From an uncultured archaeon (lineage in GTDB: Archaea; Thermoproteota; Nitrososphaeria_A; Caldarchaeales; Calditenuaceae): a stretch of DNA of 64,000 bases. Made by a program: the position numbers and the translations under genes. A model generated the notes under the pieces. It was given only the letters and a program-made list of their open reading frames with translations, was not told the DNA's origin and did not search any database. The DNA lies in assembly GCA_937921685.1 (NCBI GenBank), contig CAKZUF010000007.1, positions 55,384 through 119,383 on the forward strand, given 5' to 3'. This document shows, piece after piece, positions 6,739 to 62,547 of this stretch (positions are counted from its first letter, which is position 1; each line of letters opens with the position of its first letter).

Positions 6739-7017
6739 TTAACCACCGGTCTCAGAAATTCTAAGGGACCTCCTACCCGCACTCACAAGCTCAGGATAAC
6801 GCCTGGCCAGCTCAGACTCAACAATCCTTGCCACCTCGTCGCTAATGCTAAACCTAGGAGTCACGTTCTTCAAATAGTTAAGAACAAGAGAGCTCAGAGG
6901 CGAATAAAAAGTAATCCTCGGCTGACGCTTCGCAGCTTGCCTCGCCAAAACAAGCGCCTTCTTATCCACCACTATCTTCCGCTTCAGACCAGTTCGACCC
7001 TTCCCCATCCTCACCAC
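6739..7017 (-). CDS. small basic hypothetical protein, possibly RHH-like DNA-binding
   Basis: 92 aa, Lys/Arg-rich N-terminus (RKIVVDKKALVLARQAAKRQ). No recognisable family. Confidence 0.3.
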   Translation of the reverse strand: MVRMGKGRTGLKRKIVVDKKALVLARQAAKRQPRITFYSPLSSLVLNYLKNVTPRFSISDEVARIVESELARRYPELVSAGRRSLRISETGG

Positions 7018-7046
7018 CAGCTATCAAACATAACACGCTTTGTTAA

Positions 7047-7064
7047 AAGGTTTACCTTACAAGG
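7047..7064. repeat. copy 1 of the near-palindromic 12-mer AAGGTTTACCTT (followed by ACAAGG) in the AT-rich intergenic region
   Basis: Exact 12-mer is shared with 7316..7327. The 12-mer is an AAGGT-N2-ACCTT dyad. Confidence 0.6.
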
Positions 7065-7315
7065 TACAACATAATCAAAAAATTCTGATATACTATTCCA
7101 CGTACATATTCCACCACCGATCCGTATAGCGGCTACTTGCTCGTTAGCGAAATAAGCCCAGATAGCTGGTTTTTCCAGACTCCATGTATTGTAAATCAAA
7201 TAGTTTTGAGATGCTGAGGGTTGACTGGTATATATGGGTGTGGAAGGTTGAATGTTTTTCAATATTTTCTGAATTATTTGGGAGCCCGATTTTCTGAATA
7301 AGTTGTGTTTTGTGT

Positions 7316-7333
7316 AAGGTTTACCTTGTAAGA
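7316..7333. repeat. copy 2 of AAGGTTTACCTT (followed by GTAAGA)
   Basis: Exact 12-mer match to 7047..7058. The 3' flank is the approximate reverse complement of the copy-1 flank. Confidence 0.6.
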
Positions 7334-7513
7334 TTTACGTTTTAACATGCCCGCAACTTATGGCCAATTCCCATGGAGCACCTTCGCCCCTTTGGTGGTG
7401 GGAGTGAAAACCGTATTTTTTAGGTGATTAACGTCTTTTTTTGAAAAAAATCGCCTACGTATGCTAGTACCTTGGTGGGAGGATTGCCTTTCGGGATACA
7501 TGGATTCAACAAC

Positions 7514-7524
7514 TTTATCAATAT
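7514..7524 (+). promoter_or_regulatory. TATA-like box for speH
   Basis: TTTATCAATAT lies about 24-34 nt upstream of the speH ATG, the typical archaeal promoter spacing. Confidence 0.4.
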
Positions 7525-7547
7525 GTTTTACAGCGAATCCTTGAGAA

Positions 7548-7946
7548 ATGCAGGTTGAGCAAAAATCGGAAGTGGGAGTGGTCGGGAAGCATGTCTACGG
7601 TAATTTATATGACTGCGACCCAGACATACTCAGTGACCTTAAGCTGTTGAAGAAGCTGGTTTCCGAGGCCTCCAAGATCGCTAAAATGACTCTGGTTGAG
7701 TTAAGGGGATGGAGGTTTGGTGGTGAGAAGGGAGGAGTCTCCGTGATTGCCCTAGTAGTTGAGAGCCACTTAGCCCTCCATACTTGGCCGGGTTACAGAT
7801 ATGCGACGCTAGATATATTCACGTGTGGAGATAAGAGTGATCCCTTCAAGGCTTTTGATTACCTTTGTGAGGCTCTTAGGCCTGGAAGTATCTCCAAGCA
7901 TTATGCTGACCGGTCTTCAGAAAGGCGGCAAGTGGTAGGGCCTTAA
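7548..7946 (+). CDS. speH: pyruvoyl-dependent S-adenosylmethionine decarboxylase proenzyme (or the ArgDC paralog found in Crenarchaeota)
   Basis: VGKHVYGNLYDCD...VVESHLALHTWPG matches the SpeH cleavage and pyruvoyl Ser region. Confidence 0.85.
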   Translation: MQVEQKSEVGVVGKHVYGNLYDCDPDILSDLKLLKKLVSEASKIAKMTLVELRGWRFGGEKGGVSVIALVVESHLALHTWPGYRYATLDIFTCGDKSDPFKAFDYLCEALRPGSISKHYADRSSERRQVVGP

Positions 7947-20588: not shown

Positions 20589-20709
20589 TCCCGGCGGCAG
20601 GATTTGAACCTGCGGCCCTCCGGTTTCTGTTAGCCCGGTAGGCTGGCAAAGGCGCGGCTGGATGCCGGCCTCTACAGCCGGATGCTCTACCAGGCTGAGC
20701 TACGCCGGG
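20589..20709 (-). tRNA. tRNA-Tyr (anticodon GTA) with an intron of about 47 nt after position 37
   Basis: Hand-folded on the minus strand. Acceptor CCCGGCG/CGCCGGG gives the C1:G72 archaeal tRNA-Tyr identity pair. D arm GCTC/GAGC. Anticodon stem TCCGG/CCGGA with loop CTGTAG^A. T arm GCAGG-TTCAAAT-CCTGC. Discriminator A. CCA is not encoded. Confidence 0.75.
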
Positions 20710-25348: not shown

Positions 25349-26029
25349 TTAAAGGAGGACCGGAACCCCGCTTATAGGTAGTGCTAAGAGTGTTATGAAC
25401 GAGACGAGGGGAACAGTGATGTTATCGTCAACCCATCTGAATTCGAGTTTCTCTATGATCGAGGCGGCAGCTCCTGCCACAGCGCCCGAAACCCCTAGCG
25501 AAAGGAAGCCTGCGGGGATGCAGAAGAGGGCCATTGCTAAGTTCCCCCACCACGACTTTGTTCGCCGTTGATAGATCATATTTCTCACGATCCCAGTGAT
25601 ACCGTCGCCGATGCTCATGAAGAGGATGGGCAACACGCCGATAGTTAAGTTGCCTAAGAAAAATCCTAAGCCCATCATCAAACCCCACATCAATATGAAG
25701 TGGACCTCATACATGTTTTCCTTAACCTGGTACCAATACCATATCTTTCCACTCCGGTGAGGAAGGTAGTTTCCGACCGCAAGGACTGCGACTAGTATAG
25801 CGATTAATATGAAACTCTTAAACAGGAACGGAACAAGGACGGAGACCAGCCCCCCAGCCAAGATGTGGATTATCTTCCTATTGTAGTAAACGACTACATT
25901 GTGCTCATACCCTCTCCTTAAGAGTGTATTGTAAATCTTCTTGCAGACATAGTGGCTTACAAACAGCACCCAAGCAAATAAGGCGGTCACGTAGATAAAC
26001 TCCGCCGGAGCGGGTGGTGCAAGCAGCAT
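25349..26029 (-). CDS. polytopic membrane protein, possibly a polyprenol/dolichol kinase-like CTP-dependent enzyme
   Basis: Six or seven TM helices, with SIGDGITGIVRN resembling the GDxxAxxxG motif of dolichol/phytol kinases. Speculative. Confidence 0.3.
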   Translation of the reverse strand: MLLAPPAPAEFIYVTALFAWVLFVSHYVCKKIYNTLLRRGYEHNVVVYYNRKIIHILAGGLVSVLVPFLFKSFILIAILVAVLAVGNYLPHRSGKIWYWYQVKENMYEVHFILMWGLMMGLGFFLGNLTIGVLPILFMSIGDGITGIVRNMIYQRRTKSWWGNLAMALFCIPAGFLSLGVSGAVAGAAASIIEKLEFRWVDDNITVPLVSFITLLALPISGVPVLL

Positions 26030-26255
26030 TATCCGAGTACTGGAAATTGTGTAAAATAAGGTTTATGGTCTAAGAAGTGGCGCGGGGGGAGGGTGAAGTA
26101 ATCGAGGGAGAGGTCTAGATTCTCCTCAGCTCACCAACCGATATCCCAGACCAATAATGGCCACTAGCAAGCAGAATAAACTCGCAAAAAGGACTGGAAG
26201 TAGTGGGAGACGCCAAACGAGCCGCTTCGTAGACCTGAGCCTATAATCCCGACTC

Positions 26256-28461: not shown

Positions 28462-31400
28462 ATGGTTTACATCAAGCGAATCACGATTCAGGGTTTTAAG
28501 TCCTTTGGTCCTAAGAGAGTCGTTATAAAGCCTGAGAGGGGTTTCGTAGTCATTACAGGACCTAATGGCGGCGGTAAAAGCAATGTCTTGGACGCCATAA
28601 AGTTTAGCCTCGGGGAGCTGAGCAATAACGCGCTGAGGGTTGGTAAGCTTTCTGACCTTATACACGAGAATAATGGCCGGCGTCTAGGCCAAGCAACAGT
28701 GACCCTGGCGCTGGACAACACGGACAGGGCCCTCCCCCTAGATACTGATGAGGTGACAATATCCAGAACGATTCTGACCAGTGGTGAAAGCGTCTACAGA
28801 GTTAATGGAAAGACGGTCTCTAGGAATGAGCTCCTAGCCATCTTAGCTTCGGCAAACATTAGGCCGAGCGGGTTCAACATCATAACCCAGGGTGCAGTCC
28901 TGAGCATCGCTGAAAAAAGCCCGGAAGAGCTGCGGAAAATTATAGACGAGGTTGCAGGGGTTTCCGAGTTTGATCGCCGCAAGGCAGAGGCTATGAAGGA
29001 GCTTGAGGTTGCTGAGAAGAATGTAGCCATTGCACGTGCGGGCCTCAGTGAGCTACGAGGCAGGGTAAAGCAGCTAGAGCTGGAGATGAGCAGGCTATCT
29101 AGAAACCAGCTCGTCTCACGGTATCTCTCACAGCTGAAGAGGCAAAAGCTTTTGGAAGAACTCAAAGAACTGGATGCTAAAGTCTTATCCCTCGAGAATG
29201 AGGAGCACTCACTCGAGGCGGAGAGGGCAAAGGTCTCTCGTGACGTGGAAAACCTCCTAAAGGAGAGGCTAGAAAAGCTCTCGAGGGCTAGGAGCGTAGA
29301 GGCGGAGCTAGCCGAGATTCAAAAGAGGATAAGTGGCATGAGGTTAATGAGCCAGGGCCAAGGAGCATCTCTCGAGCCACTTAAATCATCCATCAGGAAT
29401 GAGGGTATCAGATATTCGAAGCTGAAACAAGAGATACTCGAGTCCTCGAAAAGTATCCAAGCAATGAGGATGGAAATCACTATGCTTGAAGAGGAATATG
29501 CAGAAGTTGAAAAAAGCTACCGGCAACACCTAAGTGAGCTTGAAGAACTGGAACATCACCTGAGTGATCTTAAAGACCGGAGATCAGGGCTACTAAACTC
29601 ATTGAAGAAGTGGAGGGATGAGATTGCCTCAGTTGAAGCCCAGCGATCTAACTTGATGAAAGAGTTAAGCCAGATAGAGGCTAAAATAGCTTTGACTGAA
29701 CAGAGAGTAGGCGAAATCTCGCAGAGGATCACAGAAGATGAAGAGGCTCTTGAGAGGATTAGGTCTGATAGAAGCATTGTTGAGGCCGAGCTTGACCGTA
29801 GTCATGTAGCGCTTGAGGACCTAGGCACTCATTTAACCAAGTTAAACAGCGATCTACAAGCGCTCTCCACAAGGATAGGTGTCTACAAGGCCTTGGACGG
29901 GGAGGTCAAGGGGCTTGTCGAGGATTTGTTGAAGTTGAGGGCGGAGGTTGAGGGTGCTTCAGCGGCTGTAGGCGGAGGTGAAGTTTCAGGCTACAAGTCT
30001 AACAATAGTCCATCTCCAAGCCACTTCAAACTCTTTAGGCTGAGGGACTATATCCAGAGTCTCAACCCTCAACATCCAGAGCTCTCAACATACATTCTAG
30101 ACTATCTTGACGCGTTAATCGTCGAGGAGGATAGACTCGCCTTGGCCCTCGCTAAGGTTGCAGCCGCTAGGGGGGCTAAGCTGTCGGTGATAAGCCTCGG
30201 GGGGAAGGATGAAAGGGGCTGCAGCAGCCCCAAATGCTTAGCCTGCACCCTTGCGGGGAAAAACACAAAACTAAGAGGCATACTCCACTCCATCTTTCCA
30301 AGGCATGTGCTAAGTGGTGATGGCTTTCCTGAGCGGGAACAGCCCACCATAACTCAGGACGGCATACACTATAATGGATATGGAGTATTCATGACCCTCG
30401 CACAGGTGGGTTTGAAGAAGAGGTTGGATAGGCTCCGGGCCGAGGTAGAGGCGACCTTCAAGGCTGTTGAGGAGGTTGGAGCGGGATGTGCAGCCACCCT
30501 CAGCAGGTTGAGGGAAGAGTATAGACTGGTCGAGGAGGAGATCATGAACATCACTGCTCAGAGACGTGAGGTTGAGGCGCGTATAAGAAGCCTGTCCCAG
30601 AGGCTGGAAGAGCTACGAGAGGAGGAGAAGAAGGTGACAGAGAGAATCAAACGCCTAAGAAGAGAGCTGACAAACCTCGAAGGCCTTCGTAACCACCTAA
30701 TTGAGAATCTTGAGAAGGTTAGGAAGAGGGTTGACGAGATTAAAGAGCCTGAAGCTATGGAGGCCGGGACGCTCCAGAACCAGCTAGAAGACCTAAACTC
30801 CAAGATTAACGCCTTCGAGCGTAGAGTTGGGGAAGTGAGCACTACTGTAAGGTCTCTCAGAGACCGGCTAAGCCAGATTGAGAATAGACGTAACCAACTG
30901 GTCATTAGAATAGGGCAAGCTGAAAGGGATGTTGAGAGGCTATGGCGGGAGGCTGAGGAGTCTAAGAAAAGGTTAATCCATTATGCGAGGCTCTACCTAG
31001 AGTCTTGGAAAAAATCTTCAGAAAAGAGTGACGAGTTAAGTGAATTGTCGAGGAGGGTTTCTGAGCTGCTTAAAGTTAGGGGAGCCCTGAGCGAGGAGTT
31101 GGTGGTCCTCGAGAACAGGATTGAGGAGGGGCGGGCAGAGCTGCTATCGATCGAGTCGCGGGCTCGAAACTTAGCAGTGGCACGTGTAGAGCTGAGCATG
31201 AGGAGGAGCTCTATTTTTGAGCGGCTATCCTCGATGACTGAACCTCCCCTAGAAGATTTGTCGCTACTCCCCCGCGAGCTTAAGGAAAACATCGAGAAGG
31301 AGCTAGAGGTCGAGTTGAGCGAAATTGGAATGGTGAACCAACTCGCGTCTATGCAGTATTCGGAGCAAATAGTAGAGTATAGGGGTCGTTCCGGGAATGT

Positions 31401-31923
31401 TGCTCTGCTTGAGGAGGAGAGGAGGAAGATACTTGAGATATTGGAGATGCTTGATGCGAAAAAGTTAGAGGTCTTTATGAAGACTTTCAACAGGGTCTCT
31501 GAGGGGTTTGGGAGATATTTCACGGCTCTAACTGGTGGCTCGGCGTGGCTCGAGTTCTCAGACCCGGAAAATCCCTTGCAATCAGGGGTTGAGATGGTTG
31601 TCGCTTTTCCCGGTAAGTCCCCGAGGCCTTCGAGGAGTATTAGCGGGGGCGAAAAGTCGGTCGCTGCGGTGGCCCTTTTAATGGCCTTCCAGGGTCTAAC
31701 CCCAGCCGACTTCTTAATAATGGATGAGGTGGACGCCCACATGGATGCGAACTACAGCAAGAATTTGGCGGCCCTCTTGAAGGAGTTCTCCAAGAGGGCA
31801 CAGGTCATCGCTGTCAGTCTGAAGGATGTTATCGCTGAGAAGGGTGACCAGCTTATAGGAGTCTATAATCAGGATGGTGAGTCTAGGGTTGTTGTCACGA
31901 GGCTCGAGGAAAGTCAAGCCTGA
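28462..31923 (+). CDS. smc: chromosome segregation protein SMC
   Basis: Walker A GPNGGGKSN; long coiled coils flanking a hinge; C-terminal signature motif LSGGEKSVAAVALLMAF and Walker B FLIMDEVDAHMD. Confidence 0.9.
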   Translation: MVYIKRITIQGFKSFGPKRVVIKPERGFVVITGPNGGGKSNVLDAIKFSLGELSNNALRVGKLSDLIHENNGRRLGQATVTLALDNTDRALPLDTDEVTISRTILTSGESVYRVNGKTVSRNELLAILASANIRPSGFNIITQGAVLSIAEKSPEELRKIIDEVAGVSEFDRRKAEAMKELEVAEKNVAIARAGLSELRGRVKQLELEMSRLSRNQLVSRYLSQLKRQKLLEELKELDAKVLSLENEEHSLEAERAKVSRDVENLLKERLEKLSRARSVEAELAEIQKRISGMRLMSQGQGASLEPLKSSIRNEGIRYSKLKQEILESSKSIQAMRMEITMLEEEYAEVEKSYRQHLSELEELEHHLSDLKDRRSGLLNSLKKWRDEIASVEAQRSNLMKELSQIEAKIALTEQRVGEISQRITEDEEALERIRSDRSIVEAELDRSHVALEDLGTHLTKLNSDLQALSTRIGVYKALDGEVKGLVEDLLKLRAEVEGASAAVGGGEVSGYKSNNSPSPSHFKLFRLRDYIQSLNPQHPELSTYILDYLDALIVEEDRLALALAKVAAARGAKLSVISLGGKDERGCSSPKCLACTLAGKNTKLRGILHSIFPRHVLSGDGFPEREQPTITQDGIHYNGYGVFMTLAQVGLKKRLDRLRAEVEATFKAVEEVGAGCAATLSRLREEYRLVEEEIMNITAQRREVEARIRSLSQRLEELREEEKKVTERIKRLRRELTNLEGLRNHLIENLEKVRKRVDEIKEPEAMEAGTLQNQLEDLNSKINAFERRVGEVSTTVRSLRDRLSQIENRRNQLVIRIGQAERDVERLWREAEESKKRLIHYARLYLESWKKSSEKSDELSELSRRVSELLKVRGALSEELVVLENRIEEGRAELLSIESRARNLAVARVELSMRRSSIFERLSSMTEPPLEDLSLLPRELKENIEKELEVELSEIGMVNQLASMQYSEQIVEYRGRSGNVALLEEERRKILEILEMLDAKKLEVFMKTFNRVSEGFGRYFTALTGGSAWLEFSDPENPLQSGVEMVVAFPGKSPRPSRSISGGEKSVAAVALLMAFQGLTPADFLIMDEVDAHMDANYSKNLAALLKEFSKRAQVIAVSLKDVIAEKGDQLIGVYNQDGESRVVVTRLEESQA

Positions 31924-53155: not shown

Positions 53156-54025
53156 ATGACGCCTCCGATTGATGAGACGAGTGCAGAGTGGGTTGCGACA
53201 GTCATTCCGCCAAGACGGTCAGGCTCGCGGAAAGGAGAGAACGGCGTAGTCATTGTTGTGGGTGGAAGTCGGCTGTATCATGGTGCGCCATTCTTGACGG
53301 CCATGGCCGCGATGAGGTCGGGTGTCGACCTAGTCTATCTCTTTGTGCCGGAGAAGATTTCGGTTTCTATAAGAGCACTGTCGCCAAGCCTAATCGTAAA
53401 CCCGCTCACAGACGTTAAACTGACTGCGCGGATCAGCGAGCAAATAGTAAAGAACTCTCCGCAAGCCCACGCAGCGGCGATAGGACCGGGCCTGTCTGTG
53501 GCTAGGGAGTCTGCACTGACTAAACTGCTGAACGGGCTCTTGGAGAAAGGAATAAAGCTCGTTCTGGACGCCTCGGCGCTCCAACCTTACGTCCTCAACA
53601 CAATAGGTGGCCGAGATGTCGTTCTCACCCCTCATGCCGGAGAGTTTGTGAGGCTCTTTGGGACGCCGCCAGGAAACTCTTTAGAGGATAGGTGCAGGAC
53701 CGCAAAGGAGATGGCCAAGAGGCATGGGGTAGTAATCCTGCTGAAGGGGGAGGTTGACGTCATAACAGACGGCGATAGGGTGATGGCGAATAGGACGGGA
53801 ACCTGTGCAATGACTGTGGGGGGAACAGGGGACGTATTGACTGGGCTTGTCGCGGGCCTTGTTGCCAAGGGTGTTGCTGGTTTTGAGGCTGCATCGGCTG
53901 CAGCATACATCAATGGGTTGTGCGGGGAGATGGCTGCGGCGGAGCTCGGGCTTCACATTCTACCCACAGACCTCATAGAAAAGATTCCACAAGTGATGAA
54001 GAAATTCGACAAAATCGTCAGCTAA
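53156..54025 (+). CDS. nnrD: ADP-dependent NAD(P)H-hydrate dehydratase (YjeF C-terminal domain)
   Basis: [31 protein letters not shown]...[11 protein letters not shown] at 53156 is preceded by a GGAGG-like sequence. Confidence 0.8.
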
Positions 54026-56057
54026 GCGTCTGCCTCATATTCTTCTTCAGCTCCTCGAGACTTTCTGTGGGTAGGAGGCATTTAAAGCCCCTGCAGAAAT
54101 AATAGGTGGCGCCTCCTCCCGCTGCCTCTTTCCCGACCCAGAGACTTTTTAACGCCTCCGACCTAGACGGAGAGACGACTACGTAGGGCTCAAAGATCTT
54201 TGAGGCGAGTTGGCAGAGATGTTGCCAAGGATCGCCGGTTGTGGCGACTACGAGCTGTCCTCCCAAGTCTAAAACGAATGGGATGGCTGAGATGATCGAG
54301 ATATGGCTCAGGGGGTCGTCCTGAAGCCTCTGCCAAGCCGCCTTCACCGCTCTTCGCGCAGGCTCAAAAAACCTCTCCTCGCCTGTTAGAAGGTAGAGCT
54401 GGGCGAGAAGCTGGACCGCTGCCGCGTATCCGCTTGGATATGCGTGGTCCTCTATAGACATTGGTCTGATGGGCGTGTCTGGGTCTGGGGGTGTGTCATG
54501 GAGCCCTCCAGACTGGGAGTCAAACTTTTCCAGAATATCATCTGCTAGGCTCAAGGCGGCGTCGAGATACTTGCCCCCTCCGGTCCACTGGTAAAGGTCT
54601 AGAAGGCCGCACCCCAGCAGAGCATAGTCTTCGAGAAGCCCGCGCGCCTCGGCGGGACCTTCTCTCCAATACCTTCTCAGCTCTCCATCAAGGTAGAGCT
54701 CCTTCAGGATAAACTCTACAGCGTCTCTCGCCGCGTTAGATAGGACTGTGTCAGCCGTGACTGCCGCGGCGTATGATAGCCCGCTCAAGAGTATGCCGTT
54801 CCATGACGCTATGATCTTGTCGTCCACCGCCGGTTTTTGCTTCTTCCTCCTATGCTCTCCAAGCTTCTTGCTGATGTAGTCTAAAGCACTGAAGAGGTCC
54901 ATGCCTAGGGCTTCTGAGATTTTTTCGGGTTTGGGGGGGAGCCTTATGACATTCAGGCCGTTCCCAAAGTTTCCAACAGGGGTGCAGCCAAGCATCCTGG
55001 CTACCTCATCTCCAAGAGCCCCGGCCACCTCGTCCCAACTATACAGGTAATATCCACCCTCAACGCCTCGACTCTCAGCGCTGAGAGCGGAGTAGAAGCC
55101 GCCACCAGCCGACTTGAGCTCTGAGAGGAGCCAGCGTGAAGTATCCCTGACAACGTAGAGATATAGGGGGTTTTTGGTAGCGGCCCAAGCCTCAGCATAG
55201 AGTTTGAGGAGCATTCCGTTGTCGTAGAGCATCTTTTCGAAGTGGGGTACTGTCCAAGCCCTGTCTACAGCGTATCTGTGGAACCCTCCCCCCACGTGGT
55301 CGTATATTCCGCCGAGGAAAATCGCGTTAAGTGTCTTCTCCACCATCCTAAGAGCCATGGGCTCGCCTTTCAGCCTCCAGTAGCGGAGTAGGAATAGCTG
55401 GCTGGTGGGCATCGGGAATTTTGGAGCACCCCTTATTCCGCCAAACTCGTCGTCGAAGAGGAGGACTAGTTGGTCATAAGCCATGTCTATGGCATCAATC
55501 TTGACCTCCGCCTCGCCTTCAACACGGAGGGTGAGAGACTTGGAGACCAGTTCGAACAGGTTGCTACCGCTGTTCAGAATCTCCGACCTCCTCTTTTCCC
55601 AGGCCTCCTTGACAGCTAAAAGCACATCCTTGAGGCTTGGAAGGTTATATCGCGGCTCGGGTGGGAAGTAGGTGCCGCCGAAGAAGGGCTTCAGGTCCGG
55701 AGTAAGAAAGACGGTGAGCGGCCAGCCTCCCTGACCCGTCAACAATAATACAGCCCTCATGTAGATGGCGTCGATATCCGGCCTCTCCTCCCTATCCACC
55801 TTGACAGGCACGAAATACTTGTTCAGTATATTGCTTATGGTGTGGTTCTTAAACGACTCCCTCTGCATTACATGGCACCAGTGGCAGGAGAGGTATCCTA
55901 TGCTTAGGAAGATGGGTTTATCCTCCTCCCTCGCCTTCCTAAAGGCCTCCTCTCCCCATGTATACCAGTCAACAGGGTCGTCGGCGTGAAGCTGTAGGTA
56001 GGGGCTCCTACTATCGGCCAGCCTGTTGAGCCTACGGCGAACGGCATCTCCAGACAA
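54018..56057 (-). CDS. thioredoxin-domain protein of the DUF255/YyaL family, with a six-hairpin glycosidase-like domain
   Basis: [22 protein letters not shown]...[18 protein letters not shown] is the canonical DUF255 N-terminus. Confidence 0.8.
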
Positions 56058-60972: not shown

Positions 60973-62547
60973 GTGTCGAGACGCATTAAGCTCCCGCCCA
61001 ACGAAGGAGAGCACATCGAGTTTAAGGAGAGGCTCATCCCGCTCGTTCATTTGAAGCCTGAGAGGAGGCAGCAGCTAAGCACTCAGCTAAAATCTCATCT
61101 ACTGGAAGGGGGTGGGGTAGCGGTCTATCTATTGGGAGTAAACGACGACGGTGTGGTCGTAGGGCTTAGTGAATATGATTTGGAGATGAGCCTCTCGGTT
61201 CTTTCAGCAGTGGTGGCGGAGAGCGGCGCTAGGGTTAGGAGGGTTGAGAGGTTTGAGACGGAGAAGGGCTTGATAGCTAGGGTCGTGATAGAGTCCCTCC
61301 CCACCGCTGCTAAGCCGCACATCACGGTGGCCGTGGCGGGGCATGTCAACCACGGTAAGTCGACACTTATCGCCTGCCTCCTCACAAATCAGCCAGACGA
61401 TGGTAAGAAGTGGCTATACCTCGACACACTCCCCCATGAGGTTGAGAGAAACCTCTCCGCCGATATTCACCTCGCAGTCCTAGGCTTCAAGGAAGGAAGG
61501 CCGCTAACCATGAGTAACCCCTTAGACAAGATGGAGCGAGTAAGGATAGTGGAAGAGGGTGAGAAGCTCATCAGCTTCGTGGATACTGTGGGGCATGAGC
61601 CTTGGCTGAGGACGACAATTAGGGGCCTAGTTGGGCAGGAGGTGGACTACGGAGTACTCGTCGTGGCAGCAGATGACGGAGTCACACACCTCACACGCGA
61701 GCACTTAGGGATCATGCTAGGCCTAGGCATTCCAGTGATAGTGTGTATCACGAAGAAGGATAAGGTGTCACAGGGCAGGGTGGCGGAGGTTAGGGAAGGG
61801 GTTGCCCAGCTTCTGAAGAGGGTGGGCCGAATACCATTCCTCATACGGGAGCCATCAGACATAGACATAGTATACGACAAGACAGGGCTTGTAGTGCCAA
61901 TACTAGAGGTCTCTGCGAAGACTCTGGAGGGGTTCGAGAACCTGTATAGACTTTTGGCCCTATTGCCGCAGCGAGAGAAGCCGCTTGACAAGCCATTCCT
62001 CCTCTACATCGATAGAATCTACGATATTGAGGGGGTGGGGAGCGTGGTCTCCGGCACCGTCAGGCAGGGGAGGCTGAGAGCAGGCGCTGAACTCCTACTC
62101 GGCCCCTACCCAGACGGCGGGTTCAAGAGAGTCAAGGCGCGGAGCATAGAGATCCACAACACTCGAGTAGAGGAGGCAGTCGCAGGCTATGTCGTCGGAG
62201 TCGCGATCAGGGGAGTCTCTCACGATGAAATTCGCAGGGGGATGGTACTTTGCGATGAGGAGCTCTCACCCCACGCGGTCTGGAGCTTTTCCGCCGAGGT
62301 CCTAGTCCTTAACAATCCTAGCAGGTTCGCCCCGGGCTATGAGCCAGTCATGCAGTGCCACACCATCTCACAGAGCGTGAGAATCGTGGAGCTGGATAGG
62401 GAGTATGTGAGGCCAGGGGAGCAGGGGAACGCCGTTCTCGAGTTCAAATACAGTCCCATGCTTGTCTATCCGCAGGACAGGTTTGTCCTGAGGGAGGGAC
62501 GGACTAAGGGAATAGGAGTAATCAAGAGAATACTCAGATATGCTTAA
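60973..62547 (+). CDS. EF-Tu-superfamily GTPase (GTPBP1-like) with an extra N-terminal domain of about 100 aa
   Basis: G1 motif AGHVNHGKST, DTVGHE, ITKKD, and beta-barrel domains II/III. Confidence 0.75.
   Translation: MSRRIKLPPNEGEHIEFKERLIPLVHLKPERRQQLSTQLKSHLLEGGGVAVYLLGVNDDGVVVGLSEYDLEMSLSVLSAVVAESGARVRRVERFETEKGLIARVVIESLPTAAKPHITVAVAGHVNHGKSTLIACLLTNQPDDGKKWLYLDTLPHEVERNLSADIHLAVLGFKEGRPLTMSNPLDKMERVRIVEEGEKLISFVDTVGHEPWLRTTIRGLVGQEVDYGVLVVAADDGVTHLTREHLGIMLGLGIPVIVCITKKDKVSQGRVAEVREGVAQLLKRVGRIPFLIREPSDIDIVYDKTGLVVPILEVSAKTLEGFENLYRLLALLPQREKPLDKPFLLYIDRIYDIEGVGSVVSGTVRQGRLRAGAELLLGPYPDGGFKRVKARSIEIHNTRVEEAVAGYVVGVAIRGVSHDEIRRGMVLCDEELSPHAVWSFSAEVLVLNNPSRFAPGYEPVMQCHTISQSVRIVELDREYVRPGEQGNAVLEFKYSPMLVYPQDRFVLREGRTKGIGVIKRILRYA

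Follow-up and report, generated by a model that had tools for sequence, protein, structure and literature searches.

A gap of 530-539 bp in a 64-kb stretch of archaeal DNA (contig CAKZUF010000007.1 from an uncultured member of the Caldarchaeales; the whole stretch analysed is hereafter called the window) separates a small minus-strand gene from speH, whose start codon is ATG 7548. By profile searches and predicted fold, the 89-aa product of the small gene is an unannotated DNA-binding protein of the SegB superfamily with a ribbon-helix-helix (RHH) domain. The gap carries two arrays of short repeats, box L and box R. As judged from sequence, these boxes are probably operator or segS-like sites of the adjacent SegB-like protein, and we assign this reading a probability of roughly 0.6. 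The locus pairs an orphan SegB-type RHH protein with a candidate two-array recognition region of its own; this feature is conserved throughout an archaeal order and had not been annotated before. A role for this system in chromosome segregation is possible, if rather unlikely. The gene and its repeats are arranged as follows.

6739-7008, minus strand: gene for the 89-aa RHH protein of the SegB superfamily, assigned by profile and fold searches
7041-7067, no strand: box L, which includes the first 12-mer, with half-sites AAGGT at 7047, ACCTT at 7054 and AAGGT at 7061
7041-7080, no strand: left arm of an inverted repeat, 78% complementary to the right arm
7308-7347, no strand: right arm of this repeat, in which box R with the second 12-mer lies; supported by the inverted-repeat match, the phasing and a ten-species alignment

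The first-pass annotation described an unusually long AT-rich spacer with two copies of one 12-mer about 270 bp apart, and both observations hold. The G+C content of the gap is 39% compared to 51% for the window. It is the longest non-coding stretch of the window. By a crude gene call, gaps there have a median length of 23 bp, and the next-largest measure 293, 281 and 252 bp, two of these containing tRNAs. Exact copies of the 12-mer AAGGTTTACCTT are located on the plus strand at 7047-7058 and 7316-7327, 269 bp apart from start to start, and no other exact copy is present on either strand of the window. The flanks of the two copies had been described as roughly reverse-complementary, which understates the relationship. 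Both 12-mers reside in a 40-nt inverted repeat with 31 complementary positions of 40, and its arms enclose 227 bp of AT-rich DNA. Among 300 dinucleotide-shuffled versions of the gap, no 40-nt inverted repeat scores above 26/40, short of the observed 31/40; an exact 12-nt direct repeat arises in five of them. The 12-mers are real and highly non-random.

Each box is an array of pentamer half-sites spaced 7 bp apart. Box L reads AAGGT(7047)-TT-ACCTT(7054)-AC-AAGGT(7061), with three half-sites, and box R reads AAGGT(7316)-TT-ACCTT(7323)-GT-AAGAT(7330)-TT-ACGTT(7337), with four. When up to one mismatch is allowed in 14 gaps upstream of related genes, 66 half-site pairs are observed at 7-bp spacing compared to 9 expected, and further peaks appear at 14, 21 and 28 bp. 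Alternating 7-bp arrays of this kind are typical of RHH operators, and the half-sites here have the mixed orientation, the phasing of about 7 bp and the overlap with a putative promoter that characterize RHH heptad operators.

The dyad formed by two such half-sites tracks the SegB-like gene. With at most one mismatch, 15 upstream gaps (7.9 kb) contain 23 copies of AAGGT-N2-ACCTT, compared to only two in 163 kb of flanking DNA. An independent scan of metagenomes with a protein profile yielded 77 loci with 41-87% identity, 57 of them distinct and with enough upstream DNA for analysis. The dyad lies upstream of the gene in 44 of these 57 loci, at 1.65 copies per kb compared to 0.022 per kb elsewhere. 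Overall, its enrichment upstream of the gene across the Caldarchaeales is about 75- to 240-fold. The most enriched 8-mer, TTTACCTT/AAGGTAAA, belongs to 43 of 49 upstream regions as opposed to 3 of 49 regions elsewhere. Box positions are bimodal, such that proximal boxes fall at -150 to 0 and distal boxes at -500 to -350 with almost none between. Across the order, the distal box is found some 300-400 bp further upstream than the proximal box.

Loci syntenic with the window were reached through relatives of the speH protein and derive from uncultured Caldarchaeales that are labelled 'Nitrososphaerota', 'Calditenuaceae' or 'Caldarchaeales'. Every syntenic relative maintains a gap of 520-600 bp between the same two genes. 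When gaps from ten distinct species are aligned, overall identity is only 43-73%, and several near-invariant islands stand out. On the box L side, these are TTAAAAGGTTTACCTT in box L itself, the ATTCCA...ACCGAT block, the central TATATAT and the TTTTCTGAATT block. On the speH side, they are a looser box R, ATGGCCAA, the CCGTATTTTT...CGT.TTTTTTTGA block and the TTTAT of a TATA-like element that precedes speH. TTAAAAGGTTTACCTT is invariant in nine of the ten species, and the less conserved box R retains its TTTAC, AAG and TA positions in all ten. The near-invariance of TTAAAAGGTTTACCTT within gap DNA that is otherwise so divergent is the strongest evidence that the repeats do not reflect chance. 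The dyads can be regarded with high confidence as protein-binding sites under selection, judging from these sequence comparisons. Searches of the window and of plasmid and phage sequences returned no second copy of the gap. Together with the conserved islands at a syntenic position, this result indicates a functional conserved region and not the scar of a mobile element.

The small gene most likely begins at ATG 7008, in agreement with its database entry, and GTG 7017 is an alternative start. Its product matches no Pfam or NCBIfam family and is called 'hypothetical' wherever databases name it. Orthologues are 73-90% identical. A profile of seven orthologues has one meaningful match in the PDB, to the RHH domain of SegB from S. 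solfataricus (7dv2/7duv, E = 2.8e-4). An exhaustive HMMER search with a profile of the clade gathers 269 representative clusters at 50% identity, and an alignment of 40 of these clusters matches nearly the whole of SegB (E = 1.3e-16). With 269 clusters, the SegB superfamily appears larger than is implied by the BLAST-based surveys in SegB papers. An AlphaFold2 model built from a 15-sequence alignment has a mean predicted local distance difference test score (pLDDT) of 84, compared to 52 for a single-sequence model that is too poor for use. It contains helices at residues 16-28, 37-49, 55-70 and 72-87, and the segment RITFYS falls between the first two. Foldseek ranks SegB and the SegB-DNA complex (7duv_C and 7dv2_A) as the top two PDB matches to this model, with probabilities of 1.00 and 0.99 and template modelling (TM) scores of 0.54-0.66. 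The predicted protein has the C-terminal RHH domain of the SegB superfamily, with its α1-β1-α2-α3-α4 order.

Bases are contacted in SegB by residues K52, W56 and K75 (PMC8682754). The window protein has R31 and Y35, both invariant in its clade, at the positions aligned to K52 and W56, and S54 at that of K75. The first two counterparts are like for like in type and the third is changed, a pattern consistent with retention of the binding mode and a shift in specificity. Many superfamily members from outside the Caldarchaeales begin with (K/R)xLGKGLDALIP in the superfamily alignment, and we take this start to resemble the ParA-interacting N-terminal peptide of bacterial ParB/Spo0J. The N-terminal tails of the Caldarchaeales relatives are merely Lys/Arg-rich, whereas other superfamily members carry LGKGLDAL.

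Gene neighbourhoods vary around a constant pair of boxes. Among 49 metagenomic loci, speH is divergent from the SegB-like gene in 11, in tandem with it in 11 and absent from 27, and the two-box layout is maintained in all three contexts. In the tandem context, found in Candidatus Caldarchaeum, the distal box is located 8 nt past the speH stop codon. Loci without speH often have a divergent gene for an Mrp/NUBPL Fe-S ATPase as the neighbour instead. The linkage of speH to the SegB-like gene is frequent (22 of the 49 loci, in two orientations) and not obligatory, and speH is best described as a neighbour outside the box system. An earlier proposal that the boxes are operators for both divergent genes thus survives for the small SegB-like gene and fails for speH, since the boxes persist whether speH is divergent, tandem or absent. 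Because they sit upstream of its gene, the boxes are most likely the SegB-like protein's own docking sites. On the other side, the gene downstream of the SegB-like gene in the window encodes an inositol monophosphatase.

The position of box L suggests how the protein might control its own expression. The TATA-like string TTTTAACA is located in box L on the minus strand (7048 to 7041), at -40 to -33 relative to ATG 7008. Read along the minus strand, the order is ...GTAAGGTAAACC-TTTTAACA-(32 nt)-ATG, such that the heptad array abuts and overlaps the B recognition element (BRE) and TATA region of the small gene. In the lineages of loci L019/L023 and L021, TTTTAA (TTAAAA on the other strand) is swapped for TATATA or TTTATTTAA at the same position. 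Substitution of different TATA-like strings at one position makes TTTTAACA a candidate TATA box. Several species also have GGTGA-type Shine-Dalgarno strings just before the start of the small gene. In Candidatus Caldarchaeum, the proximal box instead lies between TTAAAA (-29 to -24) and the ATG.

Dimers of the SegB-like protein would insert paired β-strands into successive major grooves and load cooperatively along each array. Occupancy of box L would then repress transcription of the protein's own gene. This autoregulation is suggested by the overlap of box L with the BRE/TATA region, or by the location of the proximal box between TATA and ATG, where a bound protein would hinder assembly of the pre-initiation complex. 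SegB is known to bridge separate DNA sites. By analogy, proteins bound to box L and box R may form a bridge, with the intervening AT-rich core looped out. Additional conserved modules are found in this core and on the speH side of the gap, followed by speH itself.

7095-7124, no strand: module ATTCCA...CCACCACCGATCCG with core CCAACCGATYCG at 7113-7124; ATTCCA and ACCGAT are invariant in ten species
7229-7235, no strand: TATATAT, resembling a TATA box, at the centre of the gap; a conserved alignment block that also lies between the boxes in locus L042
7264-7305, no strand: two copies of TTCTGAA, a TTCnGAA dyad, at 7267 and 7292, 25 bp apart, corresponding to the ATTTTCTGAAT repeat; the first copy is conserved across species
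7360-7407, plus strand: ATGGCCAA (7360-7367) opening a mini-ORF (open reading frame) of 15 codons; ATGGCCAA is invariant in ten species
7410-7453, plus strand: T-run block, with CCGTATTTTTT (T6 at 7416-7421) and CGTCTTTTTTT-G-AAAAAAA (7432-7450); conserved, and T-rich on both strands
7514-7521, plus strand: probable speH TATA box TTTATCAA, 34 nt ahead of the start codon at 7548, with a TTTAT that does not vary across species; the role is assigned from position
7548-7946, plus strand: speH-type pyruvoyl decarboxylase gene (AdoMet_dc; Pfam PF02675, E = 1.9e-34)

Some of these modules extend beyond the syntenic relatives. The strings AACCGATT/CAACCGAT are present in 20-22 of 49 metagenomic upstream regions compared to 6 elsewhere. 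CCAACCGATYCG is found in about 40% of the segB-like loci and always between the boxes, including locus L042 (2690-2705) and the upstream gaps of L028 and L025. Positions 7244-7301 align to the Candidatus Caldarchaeum locus L025 with 73% identity over 60 nt (E = 2e-5). The direct repeat ATTTTCTGAAT, part of the original description of the gap, is confirmed at 7264-7280 and 7289-7305 with 88% identity, and the T7-G-A7 tract is located at 7436-7450. Positions 7220-7238 match the reverse complement of 55955-55973 at 18 of 19 positions (E = 0.026), within a 679-aa ORF at 54018-56057, and this match is probably due to chance. A hidden protein gene was considered for the 83-aa minus-strand ORF at 7011-7262, which has no Pfam match and is frameshifted in relatives. 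No conserved ORF in the gap survives the frameshifts between species.

A short rightward transcript may start at ATGGCCAA. An outward-facing copy of TTTTAACA (7340-7347) closes box R, and ATGGCCAA follows 12 nt further on. Oligo-T tracts serve archaeal transcription termination, and the T-run block, whose conserved T-runs lie about 100 nt upstream of speH, looks like such a terminator. A protein bound at box R, over the TATA-like element that precedes ATGGCCAA, could control or insulate this transcript, which would stop at the oligo-T runs at 7416-7421 and 7436-7442, ahead of the speH TATA-like element at 7514. Eukaryotic S-adenosylmethionine decarboxylases (AdoMetDC) are under the control of upstream ORFs (uORFs), and the mini-ORF that opens with ATGGCCAA offers a superficial parallel. 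Control of speH by a uORF or by attenuation was nevertheless rejected as a claim because neither peptide nor length is conserved and no RNA structure is evident. The roughly 40 nt after ATGGCCAA are not conserved, the mini-ORF spans 11 to at least 24 codons in relatives, and its peptide is unconserved beyond MA(N/K).

Compared with the window clade, the two remaining context classes have the central modules flipped in both order and orientation relative to the gene, and the boxes keep their places at the ends. In the window clade, ATGGCCAA lies just outside the box at the TATATA end, which is the place of the segB-like gene in other clades. A flip of the modules between fixed boxes suggests that the DNA between the inverted repeats was inverted long ago and that the core functions in either orientation. 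An orientation-independent core keeps readings of the centromere, organiser or origin type alive, at low probability.

Scans of the window with a position weight matrix (PWM) and by 8-mer reveal extra box sites at chance level only (9042, 26056, 44586 and 62555). Scattered sites at a density like that in Sulfolobus, about one per 65 kb, would be compatible with this result. One of the matches, ATAAGGTTTATGGTCTAAGA at 26056-26075, is weak (11.9 bits) and falls in the 293-bp divergent gap that precedes the Suf genes, 27 nt upstream of a minus-strand gene with its start at 26029; such matches are at chance level in the window. Elsewhere in the window, a 1153-aa ORF on the plus strand (28462-31923) has an N-terminal GPNGGGKS Walker A motif and looks like SMC, at a distance of 21 kb from the SegB-like locus. 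It is the only G..G.GK[ST] match in the window, and a GTPase-type P-loop is found at 61339.

Several points weigh against assigning the boxes to the SegB-like protein as its operator or segS-like sites. No dyad is present at one mismatch or fewer in 13 of the 57 metagenomic loci. The link between protein and sites is, at the level of sequence, one of association, and the promoter assignments are guesses from position. Confinement of the motif to the gap within the window fits a local autoregulator and is uninformative with regard to a genome-wide organiser. Other modules of the gap, namely CCAACCGATYCG, TATATAT, the two TTCTGAA copies, ATGGCCAA and the T-runs, are unexplained by a SegB-like protein. 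The DNA motif itself, AAGGT-N2-ACCTT, is unrelated to the TCTAGA-S-TCTAGA of Sulfolobus. A segA gene for a ParA-type Walker ATPase does not lie upstream of or overlap the small gene, and no ORF with a deviant Walker A motif occurs in the 64 kb. Finally, the window protein starts with MGKGRTGLKRK and lacks the N-terminal (K/R)xLGKGLDALIP motif; in the SegB literature, the first 10-12 residues are conserved and interact with SegA. What the sequences show is the repeats with their phasing and deep conservation, the exclusive link of these repeats to the SegB-like gene, and the family and fold of its product; we infer the identity of the binder as well as the repression, the looping and any segregation role.

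An alternative that we hold to be unlikely, and yet worth keeping in view, is that the gap is a true partition centromere. Here segS-like boxes would act with a ParA/SegA-type ATPase encoded elsewhere, or with SMC, and autoregulation would be secondary. Homology to SegB, whose upstream sites are centromere-like and which bridges distant sites, speaks for this possibility, as do the two-array architecture with its orientation-independent core, conserved across an order, and the presence of an SMC-like gene 21 kb away. However, not one of more than 60 loci has segA beside the gene, whereas the literature reports strict segA-segB synteny. The N-terminal motif that interacts with SegA is missing, and no extra sites are found within 64 kb. 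Candidates for a ParA next to the SegB-like gene did emerge from matches to KGGxGK[ST], and these turned out to be Mrp/NUBPL Fe-S ATPases. Across the 49 metagenomic loci, no segA was found; the sole protein with this motif, and the one ParA-superfamily neighbour at any locus, is the divergent Mrp/NUBPL ATPase (PF10609 and PF01883, an FeS_assembly_P domain). In a related and similarly doubtful proposal, the gap could be a self-contained, orientation-independent chromosomal cassette, conserved across the Caldarchaeales, in which two arrays and a SegA-less derivative of SegB form a partition or organising centre or an origin-linked anchor. The arrays, 300-400 bp apart, would enclose an AT-rich core with further invariant modules (CCAACCGATYCG, TATATAT). 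If so, archaeal centromere-binding proteins would gain a new type that works without ParA, represented by the small protein, in a lineage without any described segregation machinery.

The dyads might instead be bound by a different factor, such as TrmB, an HTH_3 regulator or TFB/TBP at an unusual core promoter, with the SegB-like gene as no more than the regulated target. We consider this distinctly unlikely. Box L abuts a TATA-like element, and genes for TrmB and HTH_3 regulators do lie within 4 kb of the gene in the window. These regulators are absent from the tandem-speH (Candidatus Caldarchaeum) and Mrp-type contexts, which keep both boxes. Alternating arrays with 7-bp spacing are typical of RHH operators rather than of BRE/TATA elements, and a distal box near -400 is not in a core-promoter position for the gene.

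A replication origin or origin-proximal element, in which an initiator binds inverted boxes that flank an AT-rich unwinding region, was among the first explanations offered for this gap and now seems improbable. The layout is suggestive, with inverted 40-nt repeats around 227 bp of 39% G+C DNA, a long gap that is conserved and a core that works either way relative to the flanking genes. Across the window, cumulative GC skew dips to a local minimum at about 11-12 kb, a few kb from the gap, and oriC1 is located beside segAB in one Sulfolobales genome. The skew follows gene orientation, however, and a signal from 64 kb is not diagnostic. As had been noticed at the outset, the consensus of the origin recognition box (ORB) has no match in the gap. 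Even with three mismatches allowed, no ORB or mini-ORB resembling TTCCAGTGGAAAC is found there, and the rest of the window contains 8 compared to a chance mean of 14.9. The 7-bp phasing suits RHH proteins. No Orc1/Cdc6 gene (scored as orc1/cdc6 or whiP) was detected among ten ORFs of the window (305-461 aa) searched against Pfam or in Pfam lists covering 4-5 kb on either side of related loci in all contexts. Published material on Caldiarchaeum origins provided nothing usable.

It is highly improbable that an unannotated non-coding RNA (ncRNA) gene, or a leader or riboswitch of speH, explains the conservation of the gap. The conserved blocks, the central TATATAT, the mini-ORF and the succession of ATGGCCAA and oligo-T runs upstream of speH gave some reason to consider one, and a small RNA had been suggested previously. 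A covariance scan of the gap against Rfam, at gathering thresholds and at E<=10, returns no match beyond a meaningless SCARNA7 fragment. RNAalifold, applied to both strands of the ten-species alignment in sliding windows of 100 columns, gives a structure conservation index (SCI) of about 0 except for the trivial 5-bp dyad of box L. Folding of the segment from ATGGCCAA to the T-runs is ordinary, with z-scores of -1.2 to +1.6 relative to shuffles. A hairpin formed by AAGGT-TT-ACCTT would have a loop of 2 nt, and the modules differ in order and orientation between lineages. The gap is also only 39% G+C, though related metagenome-assembled genomes appear, partly by inference, to be of hot-spring origin. 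A C/D-box or H/ACA small RNA was considered for the repeats that contain CUGA and set aside when, read by eye, they showed no proper C box. A scan of the gap for promoters and terminators of bacterial type, a method inappropriate for archaea, found nothing. A short RNA from 7360-7442 is possible and is compatible with the boxes being sites of the SegB-like protein. Elsewhere in the window, Rfam identifies a 121-nt tRNA on the minus strand (20589-20709, 57.5 bits) that ARAGORN missed and that presumably contains an intron.

The least credible explanation is a relic of a miniature inverted-repeat transposable element (MITE), or an active invertible DNA switch bounded by inverted repeats. Terminal inverted repeats of 40 nt about 300 bp apart and a central segment inverted between deep lineages recall such elements. 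The gap is single copy, however, without a further copy in the window or among plasmids and phages, and it occupies the same site in all relatives. Identity between the arms is only 78%, and the vicinity holds no recombinase gene. The orientation does not vary among at least ten species of the window clade, nor does it differ in another sample of the window species.

These results allow the small gene to be named and should prevent the gap from being mistaken for an origin or a small RNA locus. SegB has so far been described from Sulfolobaceae and a few Euryarchaeota, always with segA. Text searches of SegB surveys yield no mention of the host lineage, the Caldarchaeales ('Aigarchaeota'). Short SegB relatives are nonetheless found throughout the Caldarchaeales, in 168 clusters at 90% identity that are all 'hypothetical' and belong to no Pfam family. 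They form a large unannotated SegB clade that has no SegA-binding tail and, at every locus examined, no adjacent segA, and that possesses a deeply conserved candidate recognition sequence. This raises the question of what role a SegB-type protein has without SegA: autoregulation alone, local organisation of chromatin, or centromere binding for a different motor.

Among known systems, archaeal oriC regions with ORBs are similar in having inverted repeats that flank AT-rich DNA within a long conserved intergenic region. They differ in that ORBs are 22-35 bp long and accompanied by an adjacent orc1/cdc6 gene, neither of which is found here, where the array consists of pentamers phased at 7 bp. 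ParG of TP228 and omega of pSM19035 are small RHH autorepressors from plasmid partition systems, with flexible basic N-terminal tails. The arrays of short direct and inverted repeats to which they bind overlap the promoters of their own genes and double as centromeres. Omega uses 7-bp heptads. In contrast to ParG and omega, the system described here is chromosomal, archaeal and without a gene for a partner ATPase; the sequence relationship was examined for SegB only. ParG, omega and ParR are structural relatives of SegB (PMC8682754).

The closest comparison is with SegAB of Sulfolobus/Saccharolobus, and from sequence the analogy appears partial, since the system here is not a canonical SegAB. 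In known SegAB systems, segA and segB are strictly syntenic and the termini of SegB are conserved. SegB sites have the sequence TCTAGA-S-TCTAGA in S. solfataricus and consist of three [AGNGTNN] repeats in S. acidocaldarius. The former (core AGA-S-TCT) is absent from the gap at up to three mismatches and occurs in the window at chance level. Sites are separated by 270-400 bp here compared to about 59 bp in Sulfolobus SegAB. On the other hand, the proteins are homologous and share a fold in which the RHH domain follows a preceding helix and a basic N-terminal tail. Repeated, palindromic sites are found upstream of the protein's own gene in both systems. Like the segS sites (S1/S2) of SegAB, the boxes keep a 7-bp register, lie just upstream of the gene and number more than one per locus.

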